Positions 1 to 56,846 of a stretch of 64,000 bases of DNA are shown here, piece after piece. Below the pieces are notes generated by a model. The model searched no databases. It saw only the letters and a program-made list of their open reading frames with translations, and was not told the origin of the DNA. Within the stretch, counting starts at the first letter, position 1. Every line of letters begins with the position of its first letter. A program made the translations under genes and the position numbers. Source of the stretch: Obrimoposthia wandeli (taxonomy: Eukaryota); NCBI GenBank assembly GCA_977020255.1, contig CDROCS010001514.1:434001-498000 (forward strand), written 5' to 3'.

Positions 1-2411
1 TCTACTACGGCGGCAAATCCCCCTCTCGCACTAGTGCCTACATCGATGTTCGCATGTCTTAGAGGTAATATTTAAAATAAATAAAATATATTTAATATTT
101 TTAATATTTTTCATTCAGCAGATGCATCATCAGTCTTCACAACATTCGCAACCCGATCTTCTGCGATTGCAATGCCACATTCATCGATGGTGGCACCAGG
201 GTCGACTTTGACCGACTTAAAAGGTTAATTATAAATTATATAATATATTTATTGATAATTTTCTAAAAAGCTACATCTTCAACGACATTGTCGTCAGCAT
301 CATCAGCTACTGAATTCGGGGTGGATTCAGCCACTTCTCGTTCCATGGCTTATCCATTACACATCAGCTGCTGTAGCCTGAATTTCAAAATCACCATTAA
401 CATCAGCCAATGAAGCTTCAGCTTCAGCAGCACCGCAGAAAACATTAGCTAGACTCTTGTATACAAATAGTCGACTTGTTGTTTAATTTGGGGGAGGTTT
501 GTCGGAGATGATAAATAGAAAGAGGCGAGGCCAATTTCTTAATAAGGCCCCACCAAGTAAAACGTAGGGAAAACGGTCCATTAAAGTTTTTTAAACGTAG
601 ATATAAATTCAAATATCGAAAATATTTTAAAATCAGAAGTGACTAAATTAGGACAGGCTAAGGTTCAGTTTTGTGCAACAGTGCAGTTAAGGAATGCCAA
701 TGAGGAAACTAAAACTTGGGTAATTTCACATAAAGCTACTGTTTTCTACGATAATTTTGAAATTTAAATTTGAAAGAAATTGAGATGAAAAAATTACTAA
801 TTATAGCGAATTAAGTAGTGGATGGACTTTAATTAGAGTTCACTGATACGATTTGTCTTTCAGAGAGTTCATACATTCCTTCGCATAGATCTCCTCAACT
901 CTCACGTTCCATTGTTAACGTACAAAACAGTAATAACCTTTGCTTCCTCTAAAGCGTGTTGCCATCCTCATAAGAGATGTAATTATTGAGCACAGAGAGC
1001 GTGTCAGTAAGTATACCAATTTTTTAAATGAATTGCAGTATCATAGAATAGATATTCTTGTTAAATTAACTGCCATATCAATATTTAAACACATTAATAA
1101 CTTGAGTATTAATGTATTCAAATATAATAACGATATCCTAGTTAATGTAATAGTGGAATACATTTTTTAAAATCCTTTTGTTGATGTAATTTATAGAATC
1201 AAAAATGAGGGGACTCCGGTCAACTTAATTTTGCTCGAACACAATAAAAAATTCCACCATGAAGCAATTCCTAATTTAGATTCTTCTAAATTTAAATAAT
1301 GGAGCCTTACCGGTTAGGATAAGTTGTAAATGGTGTCATATATGTTTGTATGGATTCCTATCCGAGCTGTCTTACAGCAAACACTTGACATTATGTACAC
1401 TGAATCCTGATGACAATACGCTATATAGCATGCTTAAGAAAAAGGAAATGAATGGCAAAATGAAAGGCAAAATGCATAACCGTTGAATTCAGGATGTATG
1501 CTGATTTTAAATTAATTCTAACATTACACGACCAGTATGAGAGTATTCATCTACCAGCTTCCGCAGGACTACTATTTTTAGACCCCACAGCAATTAAAGC
1601 TTTTTAATATTAATGTCGATTTACTGAAAGGTCTCACGATATTTCAAATGTATGATTTTGGTATTGCAAAAAATCAATCCACCGATATTATGTACATCGG
1701 CATTAATAATTAGTATTGGTGGCGCTTACTCAACTTCTACAACCTTTCAACTTTAAGTGTGTGTATGATATGGAAGAGTTGAATAAGTTGATAACAGATT
1801 TGACTAATGTTGATACAATTTCATCAAATGTCAGCTATTTGGTTGAGGTCGATTTAACAATCCAATGTGCATGATAAGTTGAATAATATTCCAGTGGTTT
1901 CTGTTCATCAATGTCCACCTAATTCAAAGGTTAAGAAATTATTGTTAACTCATGAAGACAAGTTGAATTATGTGGTACATTGGCGGCTTCTTCAATTATA
2001 CTTAAAGTTGGAAGCAAAAGTCACTTGAATTCATCGCGCTATAAGCTTTAGTGAAAATATTTTGTTTAAAGACTATAATGAGAAGAATTCTAGAAAACGT
2101 AATTTGGCCACTAGCAAATTCAATCGTGATTTTTACAAGTTAAAAAGTAACAGTATCTTTGGAAAAACTCTAGAGAACTTGTGGATGCGTATTTGTCTAC
2201 GGATTTGCAATGATGGGTGTAAACTAATAACATATACTAGCAAGTACAACTTCAAGCGTAGTTTTACAATTGCAGATGACTTGGTAGCAGTGTTATTAGG
2301 AAAACAGAGTATTTGACTTGATCGACCGATTTATGTAGGTCAAACGGTTTTAGACATTTCCAAACTGAGATCTTACGAGATTCAATATATAGAATTAGAG
2401 AAATATCGACA
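1..2411 (+). pseudogene. POLB: PolB pseudogene of outer Maverick (5' spliced region, N-terminal domains, polymerase motifs A-B; central and C-terminal parts deleted)
   Basis: Homologous to inner 13800-10615 (e.g. KLKSNSIFGK; about 90% nt identity in a ~120-nt sample); many stops and frameshifts; explains track ORFs 940-1170 and 2062-2316. Confidence 0.9.
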
Positions 2412-2860: not shown

Positions 2861-2913
2861 AACTAAATTAAAATTATTAAATATTTATTAATTAAAAAGA
2901 AACTTACTTCATT

Positions 2914-3008
2914 AGTAGGTAGATGTGTCCGGTCTAATCCACACCCCCCCTCCCCCTTGTCCTTTAAAACCGTGTAGGTGTGTGGAGTGAAATTTCGTGT
3001 ATGTGTGT
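2914..3008. repeat. Left terminal inverted repeat of inner Maverick
   Basis: AGTAGGTAGATGTGTCCGGTCTAATCCACACCCCCCCTCCCC... is the reverse complement of 14029-14124 with a handful of mismatches. Confidence 0.95.
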
Positions 3009-3276
3009 CTCCATTCCACCCAAAGGGGGGAAGGAAGGGGTACCCCCCCAACATATTTGTTAAACTTTTACCATGAATCTCAAAATTGGTTAGAGAAGAC
3101 CACGAGAATCCATATTGACCCCGGCGGCTTTTCGCAGACGAGATTTCAAATATTACTACTATTTTTAAGAAAGATTTTAGATTAATAAATTACTACATGT
3201 TAAATATCTATGTCAGTTTTAGAATTTAGAGGAGCAAAAACAAAATACATGACAAAATTATTTTTCAAAATATTTA

Positions 3277-3672
3277 TTAAACATAAAACAACATATTGGC
3301 TTCACTCAAAGTCCAGAGAGGCTGCATTTTCCCGTCATCAGCAAAATATCCATTCAGACGTATTGAGATATTCCATAGTTCTTCATCTAGAATTGGAGCA
3401 ATCAAATATCCTAGATCATCCAGACAGGGATCAGTTTCAAGCTGGAAACAATTTCCTTCATATACATAATCAGGAATGTAAAATCCCAAAATATTTTTCA
3501 GTTGATCAAAATCAGTTGTTGTTAAAATTTCGATGAGATATTTTTTCTCCACTTTTGATATTTTCACAGGATTCATAACTCGTATAATTTGATGCCTCTT
3601 TAATATATTACATAGTTTTCCTTTTGAAATTCTTTCAGGATAATAAAAATTTCCTACACATCTCTTATCCAT
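3277..3672 (-). CDS. Unknown Maverick protein A (131 aa from MDKR), possible OB-fold/SSB-like
   Basis: Open frame; TATAAACAT 37 nt upstream of the ATG; AATAAA at the stop; paralogous to 3806-4213. Confidence 0.7.
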   Translation of the reverse strand: MDKRCVGNFYYPERISKGKLCNILKRHQIIRVMNPVKISKVEKKYLIEILTTTDFDQLKNILGFYIPDYVYEGNCFQLETDPCLDDLGYLIAPILDEELWNISIRLNGYFADDGKMQPLWTLSEANMLFYV

Positions 3673-3805
3673 TCTAAAATAAGGAAACTGATTAAAAACA
3701 ATGTTTATAAAAAATACACATAAGATACAAATAAGATACAAATAAAACTGATTATTAAATGAAAGAAACATAGTAAAACCGATTACAATTTATTACACAC
3801 AAAAG

Positions 3806-4213
3806 TTAAAACATAGAAATATGAGCACGTTCAATTTTCCACATAGGCAACTTTGTTCCCATTTCATCTTTCTTGTAACCATAAAGTCGAATTGTTACAG
3901 TCCATTGCTTCTTTTTCGGAAACGCATCAATATCAACATATCTTCCATAGTCATCTAGAAATGCTTCATCGGCTCCTCGGATATAAAATTCGTTCTTATT
4001 GAAAGTAAAATTCGGAACTGCCTTTTCTATTTTCTGTTTAAGATATTGAAAATCAGGTTTTTGAATACCTGATAGATAGTAGCTGAACTTTCTTCTTTAA
4101 ATTGTCACAGGATTTACTAAAGCAATCAGTTGAACCTTCTTCAAGAATCTGACTTTGTATTTGAAATATTGTTTCACTTCTTCATACATATCCTTATCCG
4201 ATTCTTCAAACAT
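3806..4213 (-). pseudogene. Unknown Maverick protein B, paralog of A; one in-frame TAA at 4097-4099 (absent from the ORF track)
   Basis: Manual translation MFEESDKDMYEEVKQYFKYKVRFLKKVQLIALVNPVTI*RRKF...LDDYG...WTVTIRLYGY...PMWKIERAHISMF*. Confidence 0.7.
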
Positions 4214-4256
4214 TTCTATATCTTCGTCAATGCTTGGGTTCAATTTACCATTTTGA

Positions 4257-4568
4257 ATTCAAATCACTGCAATACAATCAATCACGATTTCGGCTAATCT
4301 CGGGAAACAGATAAATCTTTTTAAAACTGCAGAGAAAATGAAAGAAGAATGCATATTTGAACCAGAAATTTTTCCTGCTCTCAGTTATTTGAAGTTTAAA
4401 CCGCTATGTGTAAATATATTTTCCAGTGGTAAAGTTATGATATTGGGATTGAAAAATTTTGATTATCCAGACATAGTTGATTTGATTTTAGAAAATATAT
4501 CTTATTACATCTTGTTATCTTTTTTCTATAAACAAACCCCGTTTAAACTTATTGTTTCAAATGAATAA
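4257..4568 (+). CDS. Single-repeat TATA-binding-protein-like protein (start uncertain; first in-frame ATG at 4338)
   Basis: IQSITISANLGKQINL...IFEPEIFPALSY...VNIFSSGKVMILGLK...ILENI matches the TBP repeat (QNIVSTVNLG / YEPELFPGLIY / IFxSGKVVxTGAK / FENI); only one repeat present. Confidence 0.8.
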   Translation: MQITAIQSITISANLGKQINLFKTAEKMKEECIFEPEIFPALSYLKFKPLCVNIFSSGKVMILGLKNFDYPDIVDLILENISYYILLSFFYKQTPFKLIVSNE

Positions 4569-4833
4569 TACTATAAATAGAGACAATGAAGTGGATCGGC
4601 TTGCCGATGAAATATTTTCTGGAAAAATTAGGGGTAAAGAAATTTTATCAGAATTAAAAAATAATGATATAACAAGAGATAACATTGAAATATTGGTTAG
4701 ATCACACGTTATTCGAGAATTTAGAAATCGTACACAAATAAATAAAATTATAGCCAAATATTCATTAATTAATTTTTGTATTTCATCTACAATAGCTCTA
4801 ACATTGTACATTTCAATAAGGAAATTTCTATGA
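4561..4833 (+). CDS. Small unknown protein with C-terminal hydrophobic (putative TM) segment
   Basis: 90-aa ORF ending YSLINFCISSTIALTLYISIRKFL; TATAAACAAA 34 nt upstream of the ATG. Confidence 0.55.
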   Translation: MNNTINRDNEVDRLADEIFSGKIRGKEILSELKNNDITRDNIEILVRSHVIREFRNRTQINKIIAKYSLINFCISSTIALTLYISIRKFL

Positions 4834-4870
4834 TAATAATAACAATATTAAAAATGAAAGAGTATATGCA

Positions 4871-5179
4871 ATGGAGCTAAATAATAATGCTGTATTTCAA
4901 ATAGTTGGTCCCAGTGGAAGTGGAAAGACACATTTCGTATGTAAATTGTTGCAAAATGAATATTTTTTCAAATCTAGTTTCAAAAATATTTATTGGCATC
5001 ATGGTGGAGGAGGGGAAAGCGGGTTAACCAAAACAGAAGTTTGCAAATTGAAGGGTATAAAATTTATTGAAGGATTTGATGCAAATTGGTGTGAAAGATT
5101 GAAAAAAGAAGATGTAATAATAATTGATGATTTGTATGAGGAGGCTAACAAGGAATCGGAGAACAATTATAAAAAATAA
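4871..5179 (+). pseudogene. ATP: FtsK/A32-like packaging ATPase, 3' truncated
   Basis: Walker A IVGPSGSGKT and Walker B IIIDDL present; the sequence runs straight into the next gene, so the C-terminal half is missing. Confidence 0.88.
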
Positions 5180-5186
5180 ATTCGCA

Positions 5187-5327
5187 ATGCCTTTTACAAA
5201 GTTGATAGTAAAACGTAAAGTAAAATCTAAGAAATCAAAAAAAAGAATCATTAAGAAAAAAGAAGTGAAAAAATTAATCAAATCTGTAGTTAAAAATAAA
5301 AAAAAACTTAAATGGCTTCGAATATAA
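5187..5327 (+). CDS. Very basic 46-aa peptide, putative DNA-condensing core protein
   Basis: MPFTKLIVKRKVKSKKSKKRIIKKKEVKKLIKSVVKNKKKLKWLRI; lies among the virion genes. Confidence 0.5.
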   Translation: MPFTKLIVKRKVKSKKSKKRIIKKKEVKKLIKSVVKNKKKLKWLRI

Positions 5328-5358
5328 ACAATATTTAAATTGAACCTTTTTTATTAAA

Positions 5359-5688
5359 ATGAAGAAAATACAAAGAAGCATACCATATTTTAAAGCTTTA
5401 GTCAAAGCCTCTTCTAATAAGAGAATGATTATTTTTAAAGCATTTCCATCCTTTGTTGTAGATGATTTATTGGAAGTTTTATATAATATAGTTTTGGGTC
5501 GAGTAAAAGTTGGAAATCGGAAAAATATATTAAAGAAATATAGAAAAACTCTTCTAGATATTGCTAATGTAAAAAGTAAAAAAAGGAAACGAAATATTAT
5601 TCTTAAACAGAATGGTGGTTTCATAGGGGCTGTTATTCCAGTTGTTGCTTCAATTATCAGTAGTATTATAGCTGCGACACGTTCATAA
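5359..5688 (+). CDS. Small basic virion-type protein with QNGG motif and C-terminal amphipathic helix (pX-like class of Polintons/adintoviruses)
   Basis: ...KQNGGFIGAVIPVVASIISSII; homolog also in the outer copy (15340-15503). Confidence 0.75.
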   Translation: MKKIQRSIPYFKALVKASSNKRMIIFKAFPSFVVDDLLEVLYNIVLGRVKVGNRKNILKKYRKTLLDIANVKSKKRKRNIILKQNGGFIGAVIPVVASIISSIIAATRS

Positions 5689-5774
5689 ACAATTATTTCT
5701 AAAATCAGCTAAAGATATGGGTGCTAGACCTTCTTTACCTAAACTTAAATTTTCTTTCTATTCAAATTGTTGTA

Positions 5775-6803
5775 ATGGAGAAGATATGGTTCAATCCAAA
5801 AGATCCAATTGGCTACACAGGAGTTTCAAAATTAGCAAAAAAGAACAAAACAAAATTACAAGAAAACGCAGAAATGGCTGAGCGACCAGTTAGCCTACAG
5901 TCTGAACAAGCCGATGAGAAGAAGGTTTCCAACTAGAGCTTACAAAACCAGCGGTCCTAATAATTTATGGCAAATGGATTTGATGGAGATGATTCCATAT
6001 TCTTCCATTAATAAGGGATATCGATATATTTTAACATGTATTGATGTCTTTAGCAGGTTTGCTCGTGCAATTCCAGTTAAAACAAAGTCTTCAATAGCTA
6101 TGCTTGAAGCCATTAAAGAAATATTAAAAGAGGACATTCCACAAAATGTGCAAACTGATTTAGGAAAAGAATTTTATAATAAGCAAGTTCAATCATTATT
6201 TAAACAAAATAATATAAATCATTACTCTGTGTTTTCACAATACAAAGCAGCAGTAGTAGAAAGATTTAATCGTACTCTAAGAGATCGAATAAAAAAGTAT
6301 TTCACAAAAGAAGGAAATAAAAAATGGATCCAAGTTTTACCTAAAATAATACATGCATATAATCACTCTGAACATAGAGGTCTCAAGGGAATGAGACCTG
6401 TTGATGTTACTAATAAAAACTCTATGGACATTTGGATGAACAGGAATAAAAAAGATAAAATTAAAAAAGCTAAATATAAGAAAAACGAATATGTTCGAAT
6501 TTCGAAATTAGCTCTACTCCATTTATTAAAAACTTTGATCAGAATTGGAGCGATGAAATATTTTGTATAAGTAAAATTGATCAAAAGAGTAATCCAATAA
6601 TGTATACTATTAAAGATGCTGACAATAATATCGTTCACGGTAAATTTTACGAGCAAGAACTACAAGTAATATCAAATAAACCTAGCCTTTTCCGTATTCA
6701 AAAAATATTAAAATCTAAGGGTACAGGTAAACATAAACAATACTTTGTTAAATGGCATGGTTATTCAGACCCAACTTGGATATCAGCATCTAATATAATA
6801 TGA
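5775..6803 (+). pseudogene. INT: Retroviral-like (rve) integrase with C-terminal chromodomain; two single-base frameshifts
   Basis: DDE intact (WQMDL, QTDLGKEF, VERFNRT); chromodomain FRIQKIL...YFVKWHGY...TW; frames join across A-runs at 5837-5842 and 6505-6507. Confidence 0.93.
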
Positions 6804-7857
6804 AGTCTATGTATATGGTTTTACCTAGTAACGGATGCCCGAAGACTCAATCAGATAATGTAGCTAGGAGCTTTATTATCGATTGGGAAAATCCTATAAA
6901 TCTCCAAGGAGAATGGGAAGCGGCTTTAACAGAATTTTATTTTTATTATTCTCCAATTACTATTAGAAAAATCATACATATTTCGTTTACAAAAGAATTT
7001 AATCATGAAAAACAACTGAAGCTGTGATAGGGTTTGATAGTAAAGGACAATTCTATTACAATTGTATAGATAAAGAAGTGAAAGTAATATTTGAAAATAA
7101 CAAAGTCAGATTTAAAAATCGATTAAAATTTCTTCAAGTTATTAAAATTAATTTTGAATCTAAAAAAGAAGCTCTTCAATTCAGTTTTGATAGTGAACAA
7201 ACAGTAGCTCGTAATAAACGGGATATTATCTCATCTAATTCGGTTAGAAATGTTCCTGGTAGAGTAGCAAAAGTGTTGTTACTTGAAACGAGAACAAAGA
7301 CTGTAGTGGAACTGAAAACGTTTTCAAAAGATTATAAAATAGATAGTGAAGTGAATTTCTGTAAATTAATACAGAAGGAATGTAGTGAATATTTGGATAA
7401 ATGTGAAACATTAAATGGTAAATTAACGTTTACAGTAAAGAGCAATATAAAACGAGTTTCATTTGATGATAAACTCGCTAAAAACCTTGGTTTAAACAGA
7501 AATATCTTTGAAACCCATACAATAAAAACCATAAAAGCTAAAAATAAGGCAAAACTTTTAAATGCTGTTAATCATTTATATATTTATACTAATTTAATAG
7601 AACCAATGCTTGTAGGAGGACAGCGAGTTCCACTTTTGAGAACAATATGGATATCTAAAAATGAAACTAGAGATGGGGACACTGTCGGTATGTGTATAGA
7701 TCAACCAATGTATCTTCCAATTTCTCTCTTTTCTATAAACAATATTGAAGTAAATATTAGAGATGATTCCGGACAACTAATAGATTTCAAGTTAGGGGCC
7801 AAGACAAGTTTAACAATACATTTAAGAAAACAAAATGGCGAATCCAGCAATAATTGA
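6800..7857 (+). pseudogene. mCP: Minor capsid (penton-like) protein; one frameshift at A-run 7008-7012
   Basis: N-terminal YMVLPSN...LQGEWEAAL and C-terminal YIYTNLIEPMLVGGQRVPLLR...IEVNIRDDSG motifs typical of Polinton mCP. Confidence 0.85.
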
Positions 7858-8212
7858 AGCTTATAGTCAAAGCCAACAAGGTGGAGAATTACCATATTTT
7901 GTTGGTAAACAATACGGATCTGACTGGCTTAGAACATTAGGTAGATTTGCCTTTCCTCTTTTAAAGAGACTCGGGCGATTTATATCAAAATTAGGAAAGG
8001 ATTACCTTTCATCTAATGACAATAAACTAATACCAACTTTTAAGAAGCATGCGCTTGATGAACTTAATAATGTTTTACCTGAAGTTGCTAATTTGATTAG
8101 AAAACGTAAATCAAATAAAAGCCAAGGAGGTAGTGGATTTAAAAGTAAAAAGAAGCTAAAAATTAATATAAACAAACGTAAGAAAGTTGAAGGAACAATA
8201 TTTTCAAAATGA
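7835..8212 (+). CDS. Putative virion core protein with QxGG/QxGxG motifs and basic C-terminus
   Basis: SQQGGELPYFVGKQYGS...SQGGSGF...KKRK; position between mCP and MCP. Confidence 0.75.
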   Translation: MANPAIIEAYSQSQQGGELPYFVGKQYGSDWLRTLGRFAFPLLKRLGRFISKLGKDYLSSNDNKLIPTFKKHALDELNNVLPEVANLIRKRKSNKSQGGSGFKSKKKLKININKRKKVEGTIFSK

Positions 8213-9438
8213 GTTGCGCCAAAACTGAATTATGTATTTTTGATAAACCGCTTCCACAAGTAGTTGTAGATAATGCTTCCTTTGAAGAAATATTCCTTGT
8301 TAACTCAGTTTCAGGAACCACTTTAACCGATTTAGAATTTAATATTAATGGTTCCAATAGCGAGTATTTAGGTTTGAATGATACTTTGCTTTATGTTCAA
8401 ATAAAAGTATTAAATCGGGATGGTACTAATTTAGATGAAAATTCCGATGTAACACCTGTAAATTATCTATTTAATTCTTTATTTAATGATGCCATTGTTA
8501 CTCTTAATAATGTCAAAATTGAAGGTGGAAATTCTTCCTATGCTCATAAAGCTTTGGTTGAAAGTCTTTTGAATTAAAGTACTGATACTCAAAATACTAA
8601 TTTGGCAACCATTGGTTATGATAAAACTGTTGCAACTCGCAAAGAATGGATTGCAGGTTCTAAAGCTTACGAAATGTGTGGGTCTTTGAGATTGAATTTC
8701 TTTAAACAACCGAAATATTTAATTCCCGGTGTTAATGTACATCTTCGTTTGAAACATAATAAATGGAATTTTTCTTTGATAAGCACAGACATTCTAAAAC
8801 CTAGACTTGATATTTTGGATGCAAAATTATATGTCCAAAGAGTTAAAACTGAGCAATCAGTTTTAATGGCTCATAATATAGGAATGGAAAAAAACAATGC
8901 TTGTTATCCTATTAGAGAAACTAAACTTATATCTTATTCTTTAGGTACGGGTACACAAGCTTTTAATAAAGATCAAATTTTTGGTGATGTAAGATTACCG
9001 AAATTCATTTTAATTTCCTTTCAAAAAACTGCAAAGTTTCTAGGAAATTATACGACAGATGCAATTCAATTTGACAATCTTAATGTTGGTTCAGTGACAC
9101 TTTCAAGAAATACTGATTATCGTGAAACATATTAAACATATTTCGAAGGTAACGCTTATGCTTTGGCTTATACCCAATCTATTATTCGAAATTTGGGTCA
9201 ACTAGATAAAAATATAAACAATGGTATTTATTTCACTGACTTTAAAAACAGCTGCCCGTTCTTCACATTTGTTTTGGCACCAGACTTTGATATAAACCAA
9301 TGCCAACTACCAAAGGATGGAAATTTACGACTAGAAATTAAGTTCAATGCAGCTTTAACAAATCCTACTACGGTGCTTATTTACGGAGTATTTGATTCGG
9401 AAATACAAATCAATAAAAACAGAACTGTCATATTATAG
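8209..9438 (+). pseudogene. MCP: Major capsid protein (double jelly-roll, hexon-like); two in-frame TAA stops (8575-8577, 9133-9135)
   Basis: Track ORFs 8209, 8602 and 9163 share one frame (~409 codons); motifs KTELCIFD...LEFNI...YLGLNDTLLYVQIKV and GNLRLEIKFNAAL...LIYGVFD. Confidence 0.9.
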
Positions 9439-9491
9439 AATAGAGTAAGACATATTTTAAATTTATATTTATTAATTTTTATTTAGTTCAA

Positions 9492-9820
9492 AATAAGTAA
9501 AAGAATCAGCAGAGAAGGTCCTGGGGAATAAATTCAATGGAGTTTATCCTATTGATATGATTCCATTTTTTCAATCTGGAGGTTACATTATCAATACTCA
9601 TACTTCGAATTTACCAGGAGAACATTGGATAGCTATTTATGTTAGAGAGTGGACAATACATGTATTTAATCCACTTGCAATGTATTATCCACACAAACTT
9701 GTTTCAACTATTCAAAAAGGACGAAGAAGAGTATTTTACAACAAGATACAATATCAGGATCCTGCGACGAGAAACTGTGGACATTTATGTATTTTATGGT
9801 TATCGTTGCAAAACGATTAG
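9492..9820 (+). CDS. PRO: Adenain-like cysteine protease (5' end uncertain; catalytic Asp appears mutated to Asn)
   Basis: FNGVYPID, INTHTSNLPGEHW, FNPL (FDPL in outer copy), QYQ...NCGHLC. Confidence 0.85.
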
Positions 9821-10096
9821 TGTGTTATAAAAATAAAAATTTTAAATGTTTTATTTTGAATTATTTTTTAAATCTCTAAAAATTTAAGGGTAAAATAATA
9901 AAAGACATAAGACAATTTTTTTTTAATACATTTATTAATCACAACATCACAATGAGATATATCAGCAAAGATAAGGCATAATAAATAAGGTCCATCCTAA
10001 AAAAGTATTGAAATAACAAATAAGTTAGAGTCTAGGTGCCATAGGGATCTAAAATTTTAAAAAACTAAACTAAAAAAATCAAAAAATGAAAACCGT

Positions 10097-13000
10097 TTAA
10101 ATTCTGAAGTGTCCATAAGCCATTCTAGCGTTCTTTTCTACCCAAAAGCGCTTGTCGTCATTACTACTCAACGCGATTTTGGTTGATTTATGGGAATACA
10201 GTTGATGGGCTCTTGAAATAAATCTAGTTTGCTCAACGCTTTCAATACACCCAGTATCATAAACTTTCCGGTAGGCCTCATGTGTAAGATTGTTTCTTCC
10301 CACACCCTTTGCTCTCATTGAACATGTATTATTAGATGTATGTAAACTATAGCATTTAGGGCCTAGGAAAATACAATCATCATACGAAACCTGACCCTCG
10401 CTTTCATCCTTAAATTTCCCGATAATGTCCTTTAAACTCATAGAGTGTAGAGGATGGTTAGCGGGATATTTATGGGTATCTAGTAAGTTGTCCCTAAACA
10501 TTGCTGGTAATAATTGATTATTTAAACTAACATTCCTACATTCTAAAAAGAAAGAGTCAGTGTCCCCTGCCGCGATTTTGATCTCACAATTAAATTCTTG
10601 TCGGTATTTCTCCAATTCTATGTATTGAAGCTCATACATTCTGAGTTTAGAAATGTCTAAAACCGTTTGACCTTTATAACTCGGTCGATCGAGACAAATA
10701 CTCTGTTTTCCTAATAACACTGCTACCAAGTCATCTGCAATTGTAAAACTACGCTTGAAGTTGTACTTGCTAGTATATGTTATTAGTTTACGCTCATCAT
10801 TGCAAAACCGTAGACAAATACGTTTCCGCAAGTCCTCTACAGTTTTTCCAAAGAGACTATTACTTTTTAACTTGTAAAAATCTCGATCGAATTTGCTAGT
10901 GGCCAAATTACGTTTTCTTGAATTCTTCTCAATATAGTCTTTAAACACAAAGTTTTGACTGAAGCTTATAGCACGATGAATTCGAGTAACTTTCGCTCCC
11001 AACTTTAAGTAGAATTGAAGAAGCCGCCAATGCACAACATAATTCAACTTGTCTTCATGGGTTAACAATAATTTCTTAACCTTTGAATTAGGTGGGCATT
11101 GATGAACAGGCGCTACTGGAAGATTATCTAATTTATCATGCACATTGGGAGGAATTTTTATGTCCACCTCAACCAAATAGCCGACGTCGGATGAAACTGT
11201 ATCAACAGTAGCCAAATCTGTCTTCAACTTATTCAACTGATCCACATCATAAATCCACTTAAAGTTGGCATGAGGTAGAGGTTGAGTAAGCGCCCACCCA
11301 TACAAATTATTAATATCGATGTACATAATCTCCGTGGATTGATTTTTGACAACATGATATTTGTTGACAAAAGTCATTCCACCGCGTATACCATAATCAT
11401 ACATTTGATACATCGCGGGATCTTGCAGTAACTCGATATTAATTTTAAGAGTTTTTATTGCTGTTGCCCATGAAAGACCAGGTAAACTAAAGAAATGCAT
11501 GGGATCTAGCCCATCTTCTGCTAAAGACTTTACACGAAAGGACTCAAAAACATCAGCTAAAAGATAAATGTCTAACTTCATATAATAAAGCATATATTCG
11601 AGAAGATTTTGACAATTATTCACCCAAAATTTACGGGCCTCATTATAGTCTTGAAGACTTACACCCTCAAATTCAGTTATGGGTGGGATTTCAGTTGTAT
11701 TTTCTAAATCTTCGAAAGTTTTCGCAAATTTATACGGAAAAATCCCCTTATCGTTAACCGAAGCTGGGAACACTGACTGTGTAATTGGCCATGCACTTAA
11801 AGATGCCGTTAAATTTTTTAAAGACCCGCTCAAAAACTGCAGAGAATCTATGAATTTTAAACTGCAGAATTCAGTATATGCAGTTAAAGATAAATATTTC
11901 TCTGAAGTTTGAGGTATACATGAAATTTCCCAAGAGCTTAATGTACCCAACGCGTATTTAAGTATATGATGCAAATCATATCCTTTGAGGTTATGAAACA
12001 CGATGGGAATGCGTGGTTTTTTAGGGAGACGACGGCCAAGGTTACAAAGGTTGCACGCCGCTCCCAAGTATCGCCCCGTAACATGATCGTGATCTCTGAC
12101 TAACTTAGACTGGGTTCTACACAAATAACATAATCTACAAGAATTAAAATTAACCCAGTCTATGCCTGTCATGATCATTGCTTGATGAGCATTGAGATCA
12201 TACCACGGTTTGACAATTGTTGTTCCTAATTCCTCTAATTTTAACATAAAATATAAAATACAATTTGGACCGGAAAATTTATGATATTGGGGCCTAAGAA
12301 TAGTAGTCCTGCCGAAGCCGGTAGGTGAATACTCTCATACTGGTCGTGCAATGCTAAAATTGACTCAAAATCTGCATACACCCTGAATTCCACGGGTATG
12401 CATTTTGCCCAATCCCTGAATTTTAAATCCTTATCCTTAGGCATGCTATATAGCGTATTGTTATCAGGATTCAGTGAACATAATGTCAGATGTTTGCTGT
12501 AAGAGAGCTCGGATCGGAACCCATGCAAACATCTATGATACCACTTACACCTTATCCTAACCGGTAAGGCTCCATTATCTAAATTTAGAAGACGATCTAA
12601 ACTGGGAATTGCAGCATAATGGAATTTATTATTATGTTCAAGCAAAATTAAGTTGACCTGAGTCCCCTCATTTTTGCTCCTATAAATTACATCTACAACA
12701 TGATTTTTAAAAATTTCTTCATCTGTTACATTAACTGGGATATCAGTATTATATTTGAATACATTAATACTCAAGTTATTAAGATGTTCAAATCTTGATA
12801 TCGCAGTTAATTTAACAGGAAAATCTATTCCATGATACTGCAATTCATTTAAAAAAAGGGTATATTTACTGACACGCTCTCTATGCTCAGTAATTACATC
12901 CCTTTTGAGGATGGCCAACACGCTATACAGAAAGCAAAGGTTATCACTGTTTTGTACGTTAACAATGGAACGTGAAAGTTGAAGAGATCTAGGTGAAGGA

Positions 13001-13942
13001 ATGTATGAACTCCCCGAAAGATATATCATGTCAGTGAACTTTGTTAGAACAAAGCTAACATCGTGAATTCTAACTAGAGTCCATCCACTACTTAACTCGC
13101 TATAATTAGCAATTTTTTCATCCAGGTTTCATCCAATTTCAGTTACAAAATTATCATAAAAAACAGTTGCTTTATGTGAAATTACCCAAGTTTTGGTTTC
13201 CTCATTGACATTTTTAAACTGCACTGTTGCGCAAAATTGAACCTTAGCCTGTCCTAATTTAGTTACTTCTGATTTTAAAAGATTTTCAATATTTGAATCT
13301 ACACCTACGTTTAATAAAATTTTATTTCCTAATGGCACCTTAACTATAACATATTTATTATTTAGGTGATACTCTATAGTAGCACCGTTTTCTCTACGTT
13401 TTTTGGGTGGGACCTTATTAAGAAATTGGCCTCGCCTCTTTCTTCTGTTTGTCGCTGACAAACCTCCCCCTAATTGAACAGGAAGACAACTATTTATATT
13501 AATAGTTGAGACAATCGCAGCTGAGGTTGAAGGTGATGCTATTGGTGATGCTGCCGATGTTGAGACAATTACAGCTGATGTGAAAGCTGCTGCTATTGTT
13601 GATGCTGCCGATGTTGAGGCAACTGTAGATGATGTTGAAGGGACCGCTGACCTTTCCGATGAAGAAGCGGCTGTTGTAGAAGTTAGTGCTGCTGAAATAA
13701 ATATATTAAAAAATAAATATATTTTTAAAAATTATTACCTCTAAGGCGTGCTAACATCGATGTAGGCACTCGCGATGGTGGAGGCATATCTGTTGTAGCA
13801 GATGACAATTGTAGAACGGTATTTCCTGAATAAAGTTTTCGCGAGCCTGTATTTATTACTCGTTGATCCACCGCGTGCCCGTAGGGCACGCTTTGGCTAA
13901 TTTTTTGGCCTCTCAGGACCTTAATCAAAATTTTGGGAGCAT
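10097..13942 (-). pseudogene. POLB: Protein-primed family B DNA polymerase with spliced N-terminal extension; one nonsense codon (13129-13131) and one frameshift (~12290)
   Basis: Track ORFs 13725-13928, 13129-13461, 12241-13029 and 10097-12247 join into one gene. Motifs: SSGW, GSSYIP, VNVQNSDNLCFLY plus HY (OTU-like dyad), ExoI ADFES, EndoVII-like RDHDH Zn motif, ExoII HNLKGYD, ExoIII YMKLD, pol A DINNLYG, B KSNSLFGK, C DTDS. Confidence 0.93.
13692..13738 (-). other. Predicted 47-nt phase-1 GT-AG intron in the PolB 5' region
   Basis: AG|GTAATA...TTATTTCAG|; almost pure A/T; splicing removes an in-frame TAA and joins the frames; same intron at 65-118 in the outer copy. Confidence 0.75.
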
Positions 13943-14028
13943 TATGAGATTTTTAAATTTACAGGGTGTTAAATGGAGTTAATTTTTTTTTTGAGTGTTT
14001 GGGATGGGGGGGGGTAGAAAATTTTTCT

Positions 14029-14124
14029 ACACACCTACACGAAATTTCACTCCACACACATGCACGGTTTTAAAGGACAGTAGGGGGAGGGGGGTGTGGA
14101 TTAGACCGGACACATCCACCTACT
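14029..14124. repeat. Right terminal inverted repeat of inner Maverick
   Basis: Ends ...GGATTAGACCGGACACATCCACCTACT, followed by TSD TTCATT. Confidence 0.95.
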
Positions 14125-14130
14125 TTCATT

Positions 14131-15503
14131 CTATAATATGACAGTTCTATTTTTGTTGATTTGTATATCCGAATCAAATACTCCGTAAAAAAGCAATGTT
14201 GTAGGATTTGTTAAAGCTGCATTAAATTTAATTGCTAGTTCCAAATTTCCATCTTTTGGTAGTTGGCATTTGCTGGCCAAAACAAAAGTGTAGAATGGAT
14301 AGTGGCTTTTAAACTCATTGAAAGAAATATCATTGTTTATATTTTATCTAGTTCAAAGAAAGCATTATCTACAACAACTTGCGGAAGAGGTTTATCAAAA
14401 ATACACAATTCAGTTTTGGCGTAACTCAGTTTTCAAATATTGTTTCTTCAACTTTCTTGCTTTTTTTATATAAATCTTTGTTTCTTTTTATTTTTAAATC
14501 CTCTATCTATTTGGCTTTTACTTGATTTACTTTTTCTTCTTAAATTAGCAACGTCAGGTAAAACATTTTCAAATTCATTAAGTGCATGCTACTTAAAAGT
14601 TGGTATTAGTTTATTATCCTTAGATGAAAGGTAGTTCTTTTCTAATGTTGATAAAAATCGCCCGAGTCTCTTCAAAAGAGGAAAGGCAATTCTACCTAAT
14701 GTTCTAAGCCAGAAGGATCCATATTGTTTACCAACAAAATGTGGTAATTCTCCACCTTGTTGGCTTTGACTATAAGCTTCAATTATTTCTGTTTATCCAA
14801 ATATCCATAGAGTTTTTATCAGTAACATATACTGGTTTCAGTCCCTTGAGACTTCTATGTTCAGAGTGATTATATGCATGTAGTATTTCGGGCAAAACAT
14901 GAATCCCCTTTCCCCATTATTTTGAGAAATACCTTTTTATTCGATCTCTAAAAGTACGATTAAATCTTCCTACTAATGTTGCTTTGTACTGTGAAAATAC
15001 AAAGTAGTGATTTATAATATTTTGTTTAAATAATGATTGAACTTGCTTATTATAAAATTCTTTTCCTAAATCGGTTTGCGCATTTTGCAGAATGTCTTCG
15101 TTTAATATTAATTCGCTCTAGTTGAAAACATTCTTCTCATCGACTTGTTCAGACTGTAGGCTAACTGATCGCTCAGCCATTTCTGCGTTTTCTTGTAATT
15201 CTGTTTTGTTCTTTTGTCAATTTTTTAACTCCTGTTTAGCCAATTGGATCTTTTGAATTGAACCATAACTTTTCCATTACAATAATTTGAATATATAGAA
15301 AATATAAATTTATATAAAGAAGGGTTAGAACCCATATCTTTAAGTGAAGTTTGAAATAATTGTTGAAATAACTGGTATAACAGCCCATAAGGAACCACCA
15401 TTATGTTTAAGAATAATATTTAATTTCCTTTTTTTTTCTTTTTACATTAGCAATTTCTAGAAGAATTTTTCTGTATTTTTTAAATAAATTTTTCCATTTT
15501 CCA
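14131..15503 (-). pseudogene. Outer-copy remnants: MCP 3' and 5' ends, core protein, integrase fragments, pX-like gene 3' part
   Basis: Reverse complement aligns piecewise to inner 9438-9200, 8270-7840, 6450-6150, 5950-5700 and 5640-5510. Confidence 0.85.
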
Positions 15504-20910: not shown

Positions 20911-22927
20911 TGTTGGGGTTTCTATATGAAACTTATAGATCCTCTTGAATGCGGAGGGCCCCAACGTGAGTTCTTATAGAAGCAGGACTTAACGATGGTT
21001 GTGGCCTACTTAATGTTATAGTTGCCTATCTCAATGCTTATCTGAAGGTGTTTGTTTTTCGATGTCTCTTAATCTGAAGGGTCTAGAACAATGCTTTCTA
21101 ATGTAGGAAATCGTTTATTGTTAAAACACTAGACTAAAACAAAACAATACGTTTACGTACGTATTTTCTACAAAGTTGTAGTAAAATTCCTAAGACTTCT
21201 GTAAGTCTCTACACAAGTGGGGATGAACCACATATCGATTTTAAGGTTATGTTTGTTTTCGTCACTAGAGTCTTTACTCTAAATATGCGACAAGGTTTAA
21301 GTAGTAGATTTTTGGAGAGCTTGTTGCTCTAACAATAGGGGTTGAGTTTAATGAGATTTCTTAATCAAACTCTTTTATCTCAAACTGATTCTCTAAATCA
21401 AATTCCTTACTTAGTGGACGACGATTTTTTGATTATATCCTTCTCTAATTTATAGAGTTTTTCAAAATTATAACTTTAATTAATGGACAATGCAAAACAA
21501 TTATTTGGGTAATTTCTGCTCTAAGTTATAGAGTCTTTCAATTTTATAAAATAGACAAATGTAAACAATTATTGGGTTAATTTCTGCTCTAATTTATAGA
21601 GTCTTTCAATTTTATAAAATAGACAAATGTAAACAATTATTTGGTAATTTCTGCTCTAATTTATAGAGTCTTTCAATTTTATAAAATAGACAAATGTAAA
21701 CAATAATTGGGTTAATTTCTGCTCTAATTTATAGAGTCTTTCAATTTTATAAAATAGACAAATGTAAACAATTATTGGGTTAATTTCTGCTCTAATTTAT
21801 AGAGTCTTTCAATTTTATAAAATAGACAAATGTAAACAATAATTGGGTTAATTTCTGCTCTAATTTATAGAGTCTTTCAATTTTATAAAATAGACAAATG
21901 TAAACAATTATTGGGTTAATTTCTGCTCTAATTTATAGAGTCTTTCAATTTTATAAAATAGACAAATGTAAACAATTATTGGGTTAATTTCTGCTCTAAT
22001 TTATAGAGTCTTTCAATTTTATAAAATAGACAAATGTAAACCCCTTTTTGTGTACGGCTCACCTTCCTCAATGTAGACTGGTTTCGGCTCGTTCGGTTCC
22101 TGGGCTCGAGCTGACAAGATCTATCTTTGTTTCCTCTGAGCACTCGTCTAGATTTTGGGACAGTGACCTTTTGTCCGCTAATTCGTTGTTCACGTCCCTT
22201 GGAAATTGGCGTGCCTCGTTTTCTTTGGATTTCTGCACGTGTAGGTTTAGGCGAGTTCTTATCCAGCTGCGCTCTTACCTCTGACGATCGGCTCGACGTC
22301 CGGTCTCGATCGGTAATGGAATTGCTTTCTGGAGCTACTTAATTCCACCAGAAGTAGGCTGCGGCGTTATATTCTTGTTCTAAATTCCGAGCGGCTTGTG
22401 CGAGCTGATAATGCTAATTCTTGATTCACTCTGGGATTCCGTCTTCTGTCTTGGTTCCTGGCACAGTATTGATTTTTGGTCTATATTTTCCTAACCCGTA
22501 GACTTATATAGTCTACTCTTCTGTGACGTGGCTTGTCACTCAATTTCTCGTTTTCTGCGAGGATTTACTAATTGAGCTGAGTTAAATTAATTGCTTACCT
22601 CAGGAAAACAGCTGTCGTGACGTGGCTGCTGACGTGGGCTTGATTTTTCTGCTTTCCAATTTCTGCTAAGTACTTTGTTTTCTCTGCAATTCTTTTTCCT
22701 TTTTTGGTAACTCTGTTTTTTGGGGCCCTTTTGTTAAGTCTAACTTCAATATATACTAACACATCACACACGACCTTGGTGGTCCTTAATATTCAATTTT
22801 CCTTTTATTTTTAACAATTTAATTCTAAATTTTAATTTTATTTAATTTATAACCTTGCTTTCAAGGATTCTTATTGCACTATAAATTCGATTAATTATTT
22901 TATTTTTAACAATTCCTAAACCTAACA
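20911..22927 (-). mobile_element. Solo LTR (2.0 kb) with internal 68-bp tandem array
   Basis: TG...CA ends; 4-bp TSD CAAT on both sides; TATA (CTATATAAG, 22503-22511, minus strand). Confidence 0.85.
21445..22042. repeat. 68-bp tandem repeat, about 8-9 copies
   Basis: ATAGACAAATGTAAAC recurs at 21551, 21619, 21686, 21754, 21822, 21890, 21958 and 22026. Confidence 0.95.
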
Positions 22928-23824
22928 CAATCAATCAAACATTAATTGCTCAATTTGACACTTAAATTGTTGTTATCACTGTGACTATCTCCTCGCACAG
23001 TGGATTGTTGAAATTTTGGTCGCTTCTTCTAGCATCTTCTTCACTGTCATCTCCAGAGTCGTAGTCTTCAACTGCAGCAACTGGAATACGGCTTCTTCAG
23101 TTTCCTCCAGCTTCGGAGCATTGATGCTTGAAATGGTCTTTCTTTCTACAATGTGAACAGCTTACATTATGACATTCTACTTTCCTATGTTCCAACTTTC
23201 CATAATTTGTAATCTGCGGTTTGTAATTTCAATTTCTGTGGTACGTTCTTCTATTTCAATATTCAATTTTCAAACCGATATTGACCGTGGGTTTTTTTCC
23301 TTGCATGATTCTGGTGTCGGTAATAATGGTATTTATGCAAATGACGCTGTTGGTAAAGTGCTCTCGCAAATCATTGTTGGTTTGGTCTTCTTTCTGCTGC
23401 CTCTTATTTTGATAGTAGCTAGTTTTTCAGTTGACGTAACATCCTTTCTGATCGTGTCCATCCGAGAAATAGTTTATTTTATTTCCTTCAAATCCTGCAC
23501 ATTGCGGAACTTAAATTATTTCAATGCATCTGAACTCATGGAGTTACTCAAGATGCATTTAATGATACTTACTTTAGTAACATCATGCTCCATAATCTTC
23601 TTTGCCAAATTCTATATTTTTTTAAAGTAGGTATCAAGATTTTCTGTAGTTTTTTGTTGTAATTCAGAGCATCCATTAAACACTGAAATAATGTTTTCTT
23701 CTGTATAAATTATTTCTGCATCGTTCTTTAAAACGTCATTCGTCTTCTCGTATTCATTGTTGGCTTCATTTGACTGGAGCGCCTTAATGAATGTTGTTTG
23801 CAAATTTTCTGGAGTTTGGGAAAT

Positions 23825-25413
23825 TTTTAAGATTAGGTTTTAAATTCAAATAAAATAATGAAACTATTTATATTGAAATAAAAATCCTTGAAAGCAAAGT
23901 TATAAATTAGGATAAATTAATTATAAGAATTAAATTCATAAAAATAAAAGTAGTGGGAAAATATTAAGACCACGAAGGACATGTGTAAGCATGGGTTATA
24001 TATAGGAGAGTTCAAATTATTAAAAAGCCCAAAAAATTACAATTACGAAGAAGCCCAAGAAACAAAATTATTAAGTGAAGAAGAATTCGCCAAGTGACTC
24101 AATTGAAAATCAAGCCAGTGTCAACAAAATCTAGCAGTACGGAGCCAAGTCATCGATTGAACGGAACCCGCCGGATCTCAGACCAGAGTATATTCTGACT
24201 AGTAACTCAGACTTATATTAAGTGTAAGTAAATAACATTGTTGACAGAGCCAACAATCTGAGCGACACTTGTGGACAGAGCCGAAAACTCCGACCAACAC
24301 AGTATTGACAAAGCCTGGGATTATCGAAGAAGGTGAGCTATATAAACCCAAGTGATTACTTGATTTGTTGCAGTCATTGTCGTGCCAGAAATAAGACTCG
24401 TGAGAAACTCCGAGCTACATTGTTGTCGAAAACCGCTACATTGTTGTTGAAAACCAAGAAGAAATCAGTACTTCTCAGAGAAATCATTTTCACACCAGGA
24501 ATTTCAATTAAGTCTCGTCGATAAATTCCGAGCACCGGAGTCAAGTGAAAATCAAGAAAAACGAAGAAGAAGGTGAGTGAAAATAATTAATAAAGGTTAA
24601 AGAAATACAACATCCCATCCGCAATTAGATCAGAGCAGCTAGGGGATATCGAATCGATCAGGAGACATCACAAGGCCGGATCTGAACTGAGTTTCGAGAG
24701 ACTGCGAGAAGGGGCCAACTGGTAGACCAAACGGAAAGCAAGGGGACCGCGGCAGCCGATTCCGTTGACTGGTCTATCACCGACCAACAAATAAAGGTAT
24801 AAAGTAGAAAGTAATTTTGAAAACCGATTGATTTTAAAAGTAATTTTGAAGAGCCGATTGATTTAGAAAGTAATTGTGGAAACCGATTGATTTTAAATAG
24901 TAATTTTGAAGCCGATTGATTTTAAAAGTAATTTTGAAAGCCGATTGATTTAAATAGTAATTTTGAAAGCCGATTGATTAAATAGGGATTTTGATTGATT
25001 GAAGCCTCTATAAATTAGAGCAAGTTTTGATTTTGTGCAACCACCAATATACTAGAAAGACTCTATAACCCTCCAACCCTAAAATTAAAATCGATACGTG
25101 GTTCATCCCCACTTGTGTAGAGACTTACAGAAGTCTTAGGAATTTATTGTAATTTTTAGAACGTACTTAGACGTGTCAATTTGTGTTAATTTAGTGTGCT
25201 TAGTAATAAACGATTTCCTACAACTAGAAAGCGTTGTTATAAACCCTTCGGATTAAGACAAAACAACAAACCTTCAGATAAGAATTGAGACAGGCAAGCA
25301 TAACATTAAGTAGGCCACAACCATTTACAAGTCCTGCTTCTATAGAACTCACGTTGGGCCCTACACTAAAGAGGATCTATATTAGAACACAAGTTCATAT
25401 AGAAACCCCAACA
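23825..25413 (+). mobile_element. Second solo LTR (1.6 kb), same family, opposite orientation
   Basis: Both ends homologous to 20911-22927; ends CCCCAACA; flanked by AAAT/AAAT; TATATAAA at 24339-24346. Confidence 0.75.
24807..24985. repeat. ~29-bp tandem repeat, 6 copies
   Basis: AAGTAATTTTGAAAGCCGATTGATTT units. Confidence 0.9.
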
Positions 25414-34000: not shown

Positions 34001-35456
34001 GAGACTGTTTTTAAGTTTTATAATGAATTGCCAAAAGTGGACAAGATCACAAAGTGAAGTTTTTTAGGCTTGTTGTCGCAAGTGTTCAACCCAATACGTT
34101 TATTAGACCCGTAATCATGAGAGAGAAAATGTATTATGTAAGAATTGAGTAAGAATTATGTAAGATTTGGTTGGGATTAGGAAGTTCAGACAGACATTGA
34201 GCGACAAGCGAGACTGGATCACAGATTGTAAATGTTAGAGAATGAGTTTTTCACAATGTTTAATGCTAAAATAGACACATACGTTCAAGTGCACATTTTT
34301 ACAGATAACTTAAAATATGATTCGGATCAGTTGCGTGGATTCGTTCCGAAATTGTTGTCAAGTTCATGATTATTCCTAAACTGGAATTGATGGCGGTAAG
34401 GGAGAGAGTGAAATGGCAAAACGAATAGCAGCAGCCTTAGAAATAAATGTAATTGAAATTTGATCTTACCGTTTTTGGCAAACATAGTTTAACTTATCTA
34501 GACGGAGAATTAAGTAGATATATGTTCGACCAAAAAATCCTGATGTTATTTTATCAAGAATCATTTGCAAAAAGCATGTTATGGTGGAGTGGATACAGTT
34601 TTTGATTGATAATAAAAAATGTGGCAAGTTTCCTAGCTTCAAAAAAAGGAGAAAGATGATAAATCCATTGAACGACGTAGTGTTGATTTGACATTAAACC
34701 CGGTGCTGGATAAAGACATGTTGAGATATAATTCCAGGATAATAAATGCAGAATGTTTGAGCTACGCTGTTTGCTATCTTATAATTTTGTCAGAAAGTTG
34801 CAGTTTAACATATTTTTAGTGAATTATGTTCACAAAAATATAAGTATTGTGGTGGCCCACAACATGTTCTAAACGAGATCCAGTCGTGTTATTGAATTTC
34901 AAAGGTCCAAAGATTAATTGTAGAGGTAGGAAATAAGTGAGAGATACTAAAGAGTTACAGCGAAGGGAATGCCGAGATTCCACTTTCAAGAGCCTCTTCA
35001 ACCGTTTGCTAGAGTAGATAACTAAAATGAACGAGGAAAGTGACCTCTCGGAAGAATCAAGTGACTTAGTAAACGAAGCGATGGCGGTAAACGTGTAGCA
35101 ACTGTCTTGTTGGGTGGAAAGTCCGTCACGATGTCCTTACATCATTTATGTCGAGTTGTTTAGTGTCCAACTGGAGATCAAGGGTCAGGTCACACATGTG
35201 GAAGTTTTCTAGGGCATCGCATCGGATGAGTCGTGAAGCTGGGCGTCCGTGCAGAGCTTGGGTCATCATTTCCTCCAAACATATGACTCGTGTTAAGCGA
35301 ATTTTTGGCTTTGGTTGGGTTTGTCGTTTATGGCCGAGATTAGGATTCATGTCAGCGTTGCTGACCCAGGTGAACCAAGAAAGGTGTATGGAGAAACGAG
35401 GAGTATGTGTTTTGTTTGTAAAAATTTGAATTGTATGTAGTTTTGTATTTATTACA
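31009..35456 (+). mobile_element. Decayed BEL/Pao LTR retrotransposon
   Basis: TG...CA LTR-like 31009-31440 then PBS TGGTGGCTCC (31444-31453); RT INDHIKKGYVE...TTKVRIVF...GP; WMTN...KIL..SW...TK...FNP (Pao RNase H region); IPKLELMA; purine-rich tract then TG at 35094. Confidence 0.8.

Positions 35457-56806: not shown

Positions 56807-56846
<40 letters not shown>

Follow-up and report, generated by a model that had tools for sequence, protein, structure and literature searches.

The polymerase (PolB) gene of a Maverick/Polinton element in an animal genome contains, near its 5′ end, a 47-nt segment with the features of a phase-1 GT-AG intron, which on its sequence is very probably removed by splicing. 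Intron-like segments of the same kind are found at the 5′ end of the gene for the element's protease and in the PolB genes of half of its close relatives. These introns are probably a lineage trait of the core genes of the element and not a device for a glycosylated leader. The account we regard as likely is that the leader ahead of the terminal protein is a neutral, variable linker, that the number of its exons changes by duplication of symmetric units and that the leader is cleaved at a protease-type motif, cleavage being the least certain step.

The window (the whole 64,000-nt stretch of DNA analysed) is animal DNA with a G+C content of about 28%, and a host prominin gene occupies approximately 62 to 46 kb on its minus strand. 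Two nested Maverick/Polinton copies in opposite orientation lie within its first 15.5 kb and are ~80-89% identical over their shared parts. The inner element spans 2914-14124; its terminal inverted repeats (TIRs), 2914-3008 and 14124-14029, are 92.8% identical over 97 nt and are flanked by an identical hexamer, a 6-bp target-site duplication. Based on Pfam matches, it encodes a PolB (PF03175, E 1.6e-29) with an endonuclease-VII insert (PF02945, E 5e-5) and an integrase (rve, E 6.9e-14; Chromo, E 9.8e-6), and it also encodes pX-like and pVII-like proteins. The TIRs, target-site duplication, pPolB and integrase identify it as a Maverick/Polinton with an Alpha-type PolB. The matches of a P-loop ATPase ORF (4820-5179; Pox_A32, E 0.015) and of the region 9497-9820 (Peptidase_C5, E 0.091) are below the curated cut-offs. 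The latter we take to be an adenain-like protease, from this weak match, the position of the gene and motifs known from such proteases. The ORFs 8191-9438 and 7009-7857 have no informative Pfam match and are presumably, by position, the double jelly-roll major capsid protein and the penton.

Both copies in the window are decayed, dead relics of the spliced-leader design. The inner PolB gene is broken by a stop (13129-13131) and by a change of frame near 12.3 kb. The element family itself is very high-copy (47,892-69,823 records per run on 1.3 kb, counted in contigs from 4 runs of one sample). The coordinates of the features are given in Table 1.

Table 1 Features of the two nested elements, in window coordinates.
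Feature	Position	Strand	Remarks
Left TIR, inner element	2914..3008		Preceded by target-site copy 2908-2913
Right TIR, inner element	14029..14124		Followed by target-site copy 14125-14130
GT-AG intron, 42 nt, 5′ end of presumed adenain protease gene, inner copy	9445..9486	+	Start region decayed
Matching protease intron, outer copy	2863..2907	-	After a 5-nt ATG micro-exon
PolB endonuclease-VII insert, exonuclease and palm	10097..12334	-	Frame differs from that of the 12241-13128 ORF
vOTU protease-like domain, approximate limits	12600..13000	-	Cys motif 12925-12942, His motif 12613-12624
Terminal-protein domain, approximate limits	13020..13390	-	By homology to L008; interrupted by the stop 13129-13131
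Two basic clusters, NLS-like by sequence	13393..13446	-	RRKRR (13446-13432), KKRR (13404-13393)
QLGGG, predicted adenain-type cleavage motif	13462..13476	-	QLGG at 13476-13465
Low-complexity S/T/A-rich linker, part of exon 2	13477..13691	-	54-nt direct repeat 13505-13612
Phase-1 GT-AG intron, 47 nt, inner copy	13692..13738	-	GTAATA donor, TTTCAG acceptor; 94% A+T
Probable PolB exon 1, from first in-frame ATG (13787)	13739..13787	-	Second in-frame ATG 13757
3′ part of PolB leader exon 1, outer copy	1..64	+	Cut by the window edge
Matching phase-1 intron, 54 nt, outer copy	65..118	+	Score 7.1
Probable second intron, 47 nt, outer copy	224..270	+	91% A+T, degenerate acceptor; after a 105-nt exon

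The initial annotation had proposed the intron at 13692-13738 and a 76-codon low-complexity exon continuing in frame into the N-terminal domains of PolB, and both proposals hold as regards sequence, phase and joining of frames. The exon leads into QLGG, RRKRR, KKRR and the N-terminal sequence of PolB. Excision joins the frame 13952-13725 to the frame 13731-13129 in phase 1, and read-through meets an in-frame stop. A frame-blind scan that took in both strands of the entire window yielded 40 intron candidates, of which 13692-13738 scored highest (7.8) and was the sole one at 7.5 or above. Shuffles of the 60-nt island gave any candidate scoring at least 7 in 2 of 5000 cases, a figure that is indicative only, as the score was made by hand and written after the introns had been seen. 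The segment has the GT-AG ends, T-rich acceptor, host-like length and frame restoration of a U2-type intron; introns 1 and 2 of the host prominin gene are 42 and 46 nt long and have TTCAG acceptors. The A+T content of the viral intron, however, far exceeds the 72-74% of these two host introns, which counts against the account. None of the 15 listed out of 141 joints, from one sample whose runs are not recorded as RNA, matches 13692-13738, and this does not imply that such a joint is absent.

The frame 13731-13129 (200 codons) contains no Met, so the NLS-like clusters and the terminal-protein domain need a spliced start. This bears on a reading without splicing, in which the AT-rich island would be non-coding promoter or spacer DNA, PolB would begin downstream of it and the codons ahead would be meaningless. 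AT islands are indeed common in a window of such low G+C content, as the number of scan candidates attests, but a PolB with NLS and terminal-protein domain would then have no start, the two copies retain both splice sites despite the divergence of their exons, and the pattern extends across the family; we consider this reading very improbable. Even less credible is that the leader is merely the reverse strand of an acidic, D/E/V/A-rich gene encoded on the plus strand (13478-13744), with the AT island as its spacer or terminator. There is an open frame of 88 codons on that strand with a protein-like composition, and NCA codons on one strand are GNT codons on the other. The plus-strand frame, however, has neither a Met nor a Pfam match, its counterpart in the outer copy is full of stops, and the splice candidates on the plus strand score 1.1-3.1 as against 7.8.

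The start codon was previously placed at 13940-13942, one base out of frame. This ATG runs into a stop after 5 codons, and the 12 listed out of 15 indels in other copies include none between 13917 and 14021. A frameshifted start is also needless, because the spliced frame has ATGs of its own at 13787 and 13757, either of which could serve; only the equivalent of 13757 survives in the outer copy (45-47). The exon-1 frame stays open upstream to 13952 and the true 5′ end is not fixed by sequence. An intron candidate of 34 nt further upstream (13859-13826, score 5.65) is less likely, as it is shorter than any intron of the family and only ~65% A+T. It overlaps a stretch that by eye is TATA-like and initiator-like.

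The outer copy has the matching intron that the initial annotation had described, and this is in phase 1 since it is preceded by 64 nt of frame ending in the exon-1 motif common to both copies. Both splice sites of intron 1 are kept between the copies, and the exon downstream has diverged past alignment. The second outer intron (224-270), also claimed to be in phase 1, is less certain: its size and A+T content fit, but it has an AAG acceptor and a score of 3.15, which is below threshold, and it was not picked by the blind scan. With both introns removed the outer leader is in phase 0 relative to the downstream frame and thus out of frame with the outer PolB, a consequence of further decay, which includes a frame change and two stops at ~350-490. 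The proposed difference in exon number between copies therefore rests on a decayed site in the window; among relatives it is firm, with 0 to at least 4 leader introns.

In both copies a short intron also lies at the 5′ end of the protease gene, which indicates that such introns characterise the element and are not peculiar to the leader. In the outer copy this intron is in phase 2 if the acceptor at 2863 is used (frame assigned by eye); the scan chose the next AG, at 2858.

Relatives were collected with the 12241-13128 ORF as query, giving 74 proteins, seven of them at 45-51% identity. With an alignment of seven homologues as query, 80 of 506 metagenome matches were kept together with 9 viral loci. 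A direct scan of the metagenome and viral contigs with the window's own ORF gave no relatives, and 13129-13515 as query gave nothing at E ≤1 among the longer proteins. When applied to the 12 closest loci and the two window copies (14 PolB sequences), the blind scan found 20 sense and 3 antisense candidates, as against 16 and 18 in 77 distant PolB sequences, which is background. Introns lie within the PolB coding sequence in six of the 12 close loci (L001, L005, L006, L007, L012 and L016). The leader is uninterrupted in four others (L002, L003, L004 and L008), and the remaining two stop short of the 5′ end. All 18 introns modelled in the six loci are GT-AG, 42-53 nt long and in phase 1, and their removal yields long open frames; 16 came from the blind scan and two, of lower A+T content, from a looser list. 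An alternative acceptor for intron 1 of L001 breaks the frame.

Two observations make the intron reading of these sequences hard to avoid. Six introns in L001, L012 and L016 occupy two common positions inside conserved terminal-protein/vOTU sequence that is continuous in other relatives. Secondly, a profile made from 8 N-termini that are continuous with PolB matches exon 1 in both L005 and L006 (E 1.3e-10 and 3.4e-18, respectively). This exon encodes a Cys/His zinc-finger-like domain and is separated from PolB by three introns. Introns of one kind inside conserved domains of relatives and in the protease gene of both window copies argue against the earlier proposal that the introns serve to build the leader; moreover, several relatives have equally variable linkers without any intron.

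The top-scoring of 253 intron pairs are orthologous positions or tandem duplicates, and no introner elements (many near-identical introns at unrelated positions) were seen among them. The window intron does not occur in the 14 most similar pairs. A midpoint-rooted tree of 35 rows, comprising 20 of 91 locus sequences (both window copies included) and 15 of 74 proteins, places all six intron-bearing loci in one clade (support 93) together with L008, which has an intronless leader. The window pair groups with P0003 (79), apart from this clade. The deeper nodes are weak and compatible with single as well as repeated gain of introns. Given the separate lineage and the absence of the window intron from the top 14 pairs, the intron positions of the two clades need not be homologous.

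The uniform phase could also be taken to mean that the introns are a regulatory or diversifying device, in which alternative splicing or retention tunes the amount of PolB or its leader isoforms. As all 18 introns of the relatives are in phase 1, 9 of 9 internal leader exons could be skipped in frame (the two counts being one observation), and read-through meets an in-frame stop in 14 of the 17 introns tested in relatives and in the window's own. In L007 each of two duplicated exons bears the protease motif, so isoforms could differ in the number of protease sites, with PolB limited, for example, to certain cells; in the window, too, a second acceptor in phase with the first lies 3 nt on, at 13689. 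On the other hand, the six introns inside conserved domains are in phase 1 as well, where skipping would ruin the protein, the intronless relatives L002, L003, L004 and L008 do without such a device, and the inner copy has one intron and no skippable exon. We consider a regulatory role unlikely, and compatible with the main account. An elaboration that we find equally doubtful treats the polymerase N-terminus in a lineage of animal Mavericks as a set of phase-1 cassettes: zinc-finger, linker and protease-site micro-exons would be added, copied and dropped as units, with alternative splicing or retention by the host spliceosome. If true, it would set the amount of PolB and determine which terminal-protein precursor enters particles, a splice-level switch between life as a transposon and life as a virus and a small-scale parallel of adenovirus E2B splicing.

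The likely domain order of the leader was modelled on a relative. An AlphaFold2 model of residues 1-400 of the intronless L008 has a small N-terminal domain (pLDDT ~60-70), then a linker in which pLDDT is <50 over most of residues 67-152, and finally a domain predicted with confidence at 155-272. The region 153-273 resembles the Y-family little-finger fold (Z 8.5, rmsd 2.3, 92 aligned residues), the fold assigned to the terminal protein in 10.1101/2024.03.18.585575, and residues 285-400 match OTU structures with Z 4.1-4.5, which alone is weak. The Cys and His motifs of the vOTU are found in the window, and PolB combines an OTU domain with a pfam03175-type polymerase, the combination given for Alpha adintoviruses (Starrett et al. 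2021, PMC8502044). The top viral match of the N-terminal L008 model is A0A7D4VFN9 (E 7.8e-14), and MELD-virus and densovirus-labelled PolBs are also among its top viral matches. For the zinc-finger-like domain an Atlas search gave only leads below 0.9, and fold searches barely probe this domain. The window's family is without the N-terminal zinc-finger-like domain of most relatives: no such exon is detectable by HMM in the first 16.5 kb of the window, translated with stops as X.

The S/T/A-rich exon of the window sits where L008 has its disordered linker, and with L008 as the model the low-complexity leader is best read as a disordered linker under weak constraint. The variable, disordered leader foreseen in the initial annotation is in keeping with this, as linker lengths vary across the family. 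Repeats occur in linkers with and without introns: the window exon has a direct repeat of 54 nt, and L008 and P0006 have peptide repeats. Exons 3 and 4 of L007 are both 66 nt long with the same start, and its introns 2 and 3 are alike (z 4.5); in L012 an exon end is repeated. Other host copies show linker skips of 53, 89, 94 and 100 nt, which are not multiples of three, and of 87, 93 and 99 nt, which are. Based on 40 of 77 variant rows, 4 of the 13 variant sites listed in the linker exon are at the third codon position, 5 at the first and 4 at the second, as against 5 of 8 at the third position in the conserved part downstream. Since third positions are not enriched in the linker, coding constraint there is weak or not demonstrable.

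A bias towards S, T and A had been said to be kept while the exons diverge, and the leader had been proposed to be glycosylatable by design. Splice sites are kept at intron 1, but the bias is not family-wide, and glycosylation is thus unsupported. It is quite improbable that the exon was selected as a glycosylatable, mucin-like leader. The S+T+A fraction is 0.62 in the inner exon and 0.50 in the outer, and loose ends of other copies at 13646 can be read by eye as more S/T/A/P codons; in 10 relatives, however, it is 0.11-0.48, their linkers being instead acidic, P/E-rich, N/D/V-rich or basic. The protein also has a putative NLS and, by eye, no signal peptide. Mucin-type glycosylation is not expected of an NLS-bearing protein that lacks a signal peptide; nuclear O-GlcNAc may occur on such a protein. 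A Sporozoite_P67 Pfam match on the linker (E 4.8e-6, below the cut-off) is taken as an artefact of composition.

At the end of the leader, just ahead of the terminal-protein domain, a protease-type motif is followed by basic clusters, as the initial annotation had stated. QLGGG fits the adenain consensus with Leu or Gln at P4. Adenovirus protease sites are described as (M/I/L)XGG|X and (M/I/L)XGX|G, with Gln accepted at P4, and pTP is among the proteins cut (PMC4246237). A motif [QMLI]xG[GAS] precedes the NLS-like clusters in the leaders of 11 of 15 relatives and is absent from four. In the element itself QxG[GAS] occurs once at the leader end and four times in the pX-like and pVII-like proteins, and not in the middle and C-terminal ORFs of PolB or in the penton, integrase or capsid ORFs. 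The capsid ORF has one match to the M-type motif. These matches tip the balance slightly towards trimming of the leader at QLGGG by the adenain during maturation. The published candidate for processing of pPolB is its own vOTU, cutting downstream of the terminal protein (10.1101/2024.03.18.585575), and the two cuts are mutually compatible.

In the account that we favour, the integrated element would be transcribed in the nucleus and the host spliceosome would excise the 47-nt intron. This would couple the short exon 1 to the low-complexity exon and bring the NLS, terminal protein, vOTU and polymerase into one frame. The low-complexity part would form a disordered linker, which in most relatives would tether the N-terminal zinc-finger-like domain. 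During virion maturation the adenain may trim the leader at QLGGG, comparable to the adenovirus protease acting on pTP, so that the genome-linked terminal protein would then begin with the NLS. The linker appears weakly constrained, its length probably shifting by tandem duplication and deletion. Because all the PolB leader introns are in phase 1, units of exon plus intron can be duplicated without loss of frame, which would account for the variation in exon number.

If the introns are real, some animal Mavericks need nuclear transcription and the host spliceosome to express their polymerase and maturation protease, which favours host-nuclear over helper-virus cytoplasmic expression in this lineage; horizontal spread may then be limited to hosts that splice introns of ~45 nt. 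Annotation of Maverick core genes relies on ORF finders and takes introns to be absent; calls made in this way would trim the N-terminus of PolB and might class live elements as defective. Intron positions common to several elements are new characters for Maverick phylogeny, and junction reads are a simple test of expression of the family.

The element resembles Mavericks/Polintons in its TIRs, 6-bp target-site duplication, pPolB, rve integrase with chromodomain and pX- and pVII-like proteins, and probably also in its putative ATPase and adenain-like protease; it resembles Alpha adintoviruses in its N-terminal OTU domain and pfam03175 PolB (PMC8502044). The core genes of vertebrate Mavericks are described as intronless (PMC8097293), and in a nematode Maverick introns are described in cargo genes only (10.1101/2022.07.12.499685); by contrast, both PolB and the protease have predicted short GT-AG introns here. 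Literature searches on introns in Polintons and adintoviruses listed no paper on spliceosomal introns in Maverick PolB; exon annotations could exist in the founding papers, Repbase entries or supplements. Mini-introns of host style in the core genes of a Maverick, together with a modular, weakly constrained polymerase leader, are probably an unreported variant of gene structure in a known element. The spliceosomal-type introns of dinoflagellate Maverick-Polinton-like proviruses are described as introners, transposon-derived repeats mostly acquired after integration (PMC11957031), whereas those found here are not copies of one element and are common to diverged copies. Cryptophyte PLVs are described with group I introns (PMC12220804), which does not fit here.

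The pPolB layout of Krupovic et al. 2024 (10.1101/2024.03.18.585575) is TP-vOTU-EXO-PALM, and the L008 model likewise has the terminal protein followed by the vOTU. Relative to the layout as described there, the family has in addition a zinc-finger-like domain or nothing, a disordered linker and a QxGG-type motif ahead of the terminal protein; the words 'zinc' and 'intron' do not occur in the main text of that paper. Zinc fingers preceding TP/vOTU are already known from A0A7D4VFN9, a C2H2-domain protein of Drosophila-associated adintovirus 2, in contrast to the window's family, in which no zinc-finger exon is detectable. The closest likeness in processing is to adenovirus E2B, where the pTP of HAdV-37 is annotated with a spliced first exon of 9 nt (PMC2397415) and the pTP precursor is described as cut by adenain at Gly-Gly-type sites (PMC4246237). 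The adenovirus intron is kilobases long and belongs to a complex transcription unit, and pTP has a gene of its own, whereas the introns here are host-style ones of ~45 nt and the terminal protein is fused to the polymerase; adenovirus pTP splicing is an analogy, drawn from a descendant lineage. The presence of an adenain-type site ahead of the terminal protein points to an adenovirus-like maturation of pTP in Polintons, beside the published vOTU model.

The duplicated hexamer that flanks the inner Maverick/Polinton copy is the ATG micro-exon of the probable adenain-type protease gene of the outer copy and lies directly before the donor of the predicted intron of that gene; the target of the inner insertion in the outer copy is thus exactly the protease start. 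The Maverick family to which the inner element belongs is present in very high copy, with 47,892-69,823 contig records per run (one sample) covering a 1.3 kb stretch (12900-14200).

Further features of the window
Feature	Position	Strand	Detail
Duplicated hexamer	2908-2913 / 14125-14130		
Tandem ORFs near left TIR	3277-3789; 3806-4096	-	
GT-AG intron candidate	3717-3674		44 nt; splice-site score 6.0
TBP-fold ORF	4257-4568	+	Pfam TBP, E 9e-12
PolB-like piece	10011-10110		100 nt
Hairpin upstream of PolB	13872-13890	-	8 bp, 3-nt loop
Nested inverted repeats (within 20975-25344)	20975/25344; 21184/25145; 22802/23950		
Purine-skewed region	33716-35479		
Host prominin gene	about 45900-62015	-	

The hairpin upstream of PolB, the protein-primed polymerase gene, is a perfect G+C stem, but may be accidental since two of its positions vary among other copies. 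Directly past the PolB stop, in inverted orientation, is a short piece with 74% similarity to the PolB N-terminal sequence (13363-13265).

In L008, a relative whose leader is otherwise without introns, a 41-nt GT-AG candidate (275-315) ends 4 nt before the PolB ATG and is a possible 5' UTR intron. The homologue P0082 has a K/F/I/N-rich stretch (residues about 45-60) within its long acidic PolB leader, which looks like an AT-rich intron translated through by the gene caller.

Within the inner element, the TBP-fold ORF has two unknown ORFs on one side and the ATPase on the other. The tandem ORFs gave no match in a Pfam search; by eye, they appear paralogous. The 44-nt intron candidate, scored with a hand-made splice-site measure devised after the introns had been seen, has its end a single base upstream of the start codon (ATG) of tandem ORF number two.

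Elsewhere in the window, the nested inverted repeats enclose two arrays, a 68-nt tandem one and a 29-nt one, and are probably another mobile element. Fragments in the purine-skewed region resemble, by eye, a LINE-type retroelement. The host prominin gene contains a 32-nt micro-exon flanked by introns of 42 and 46 nt, and introns this short are reminiscent of those of flatworms.
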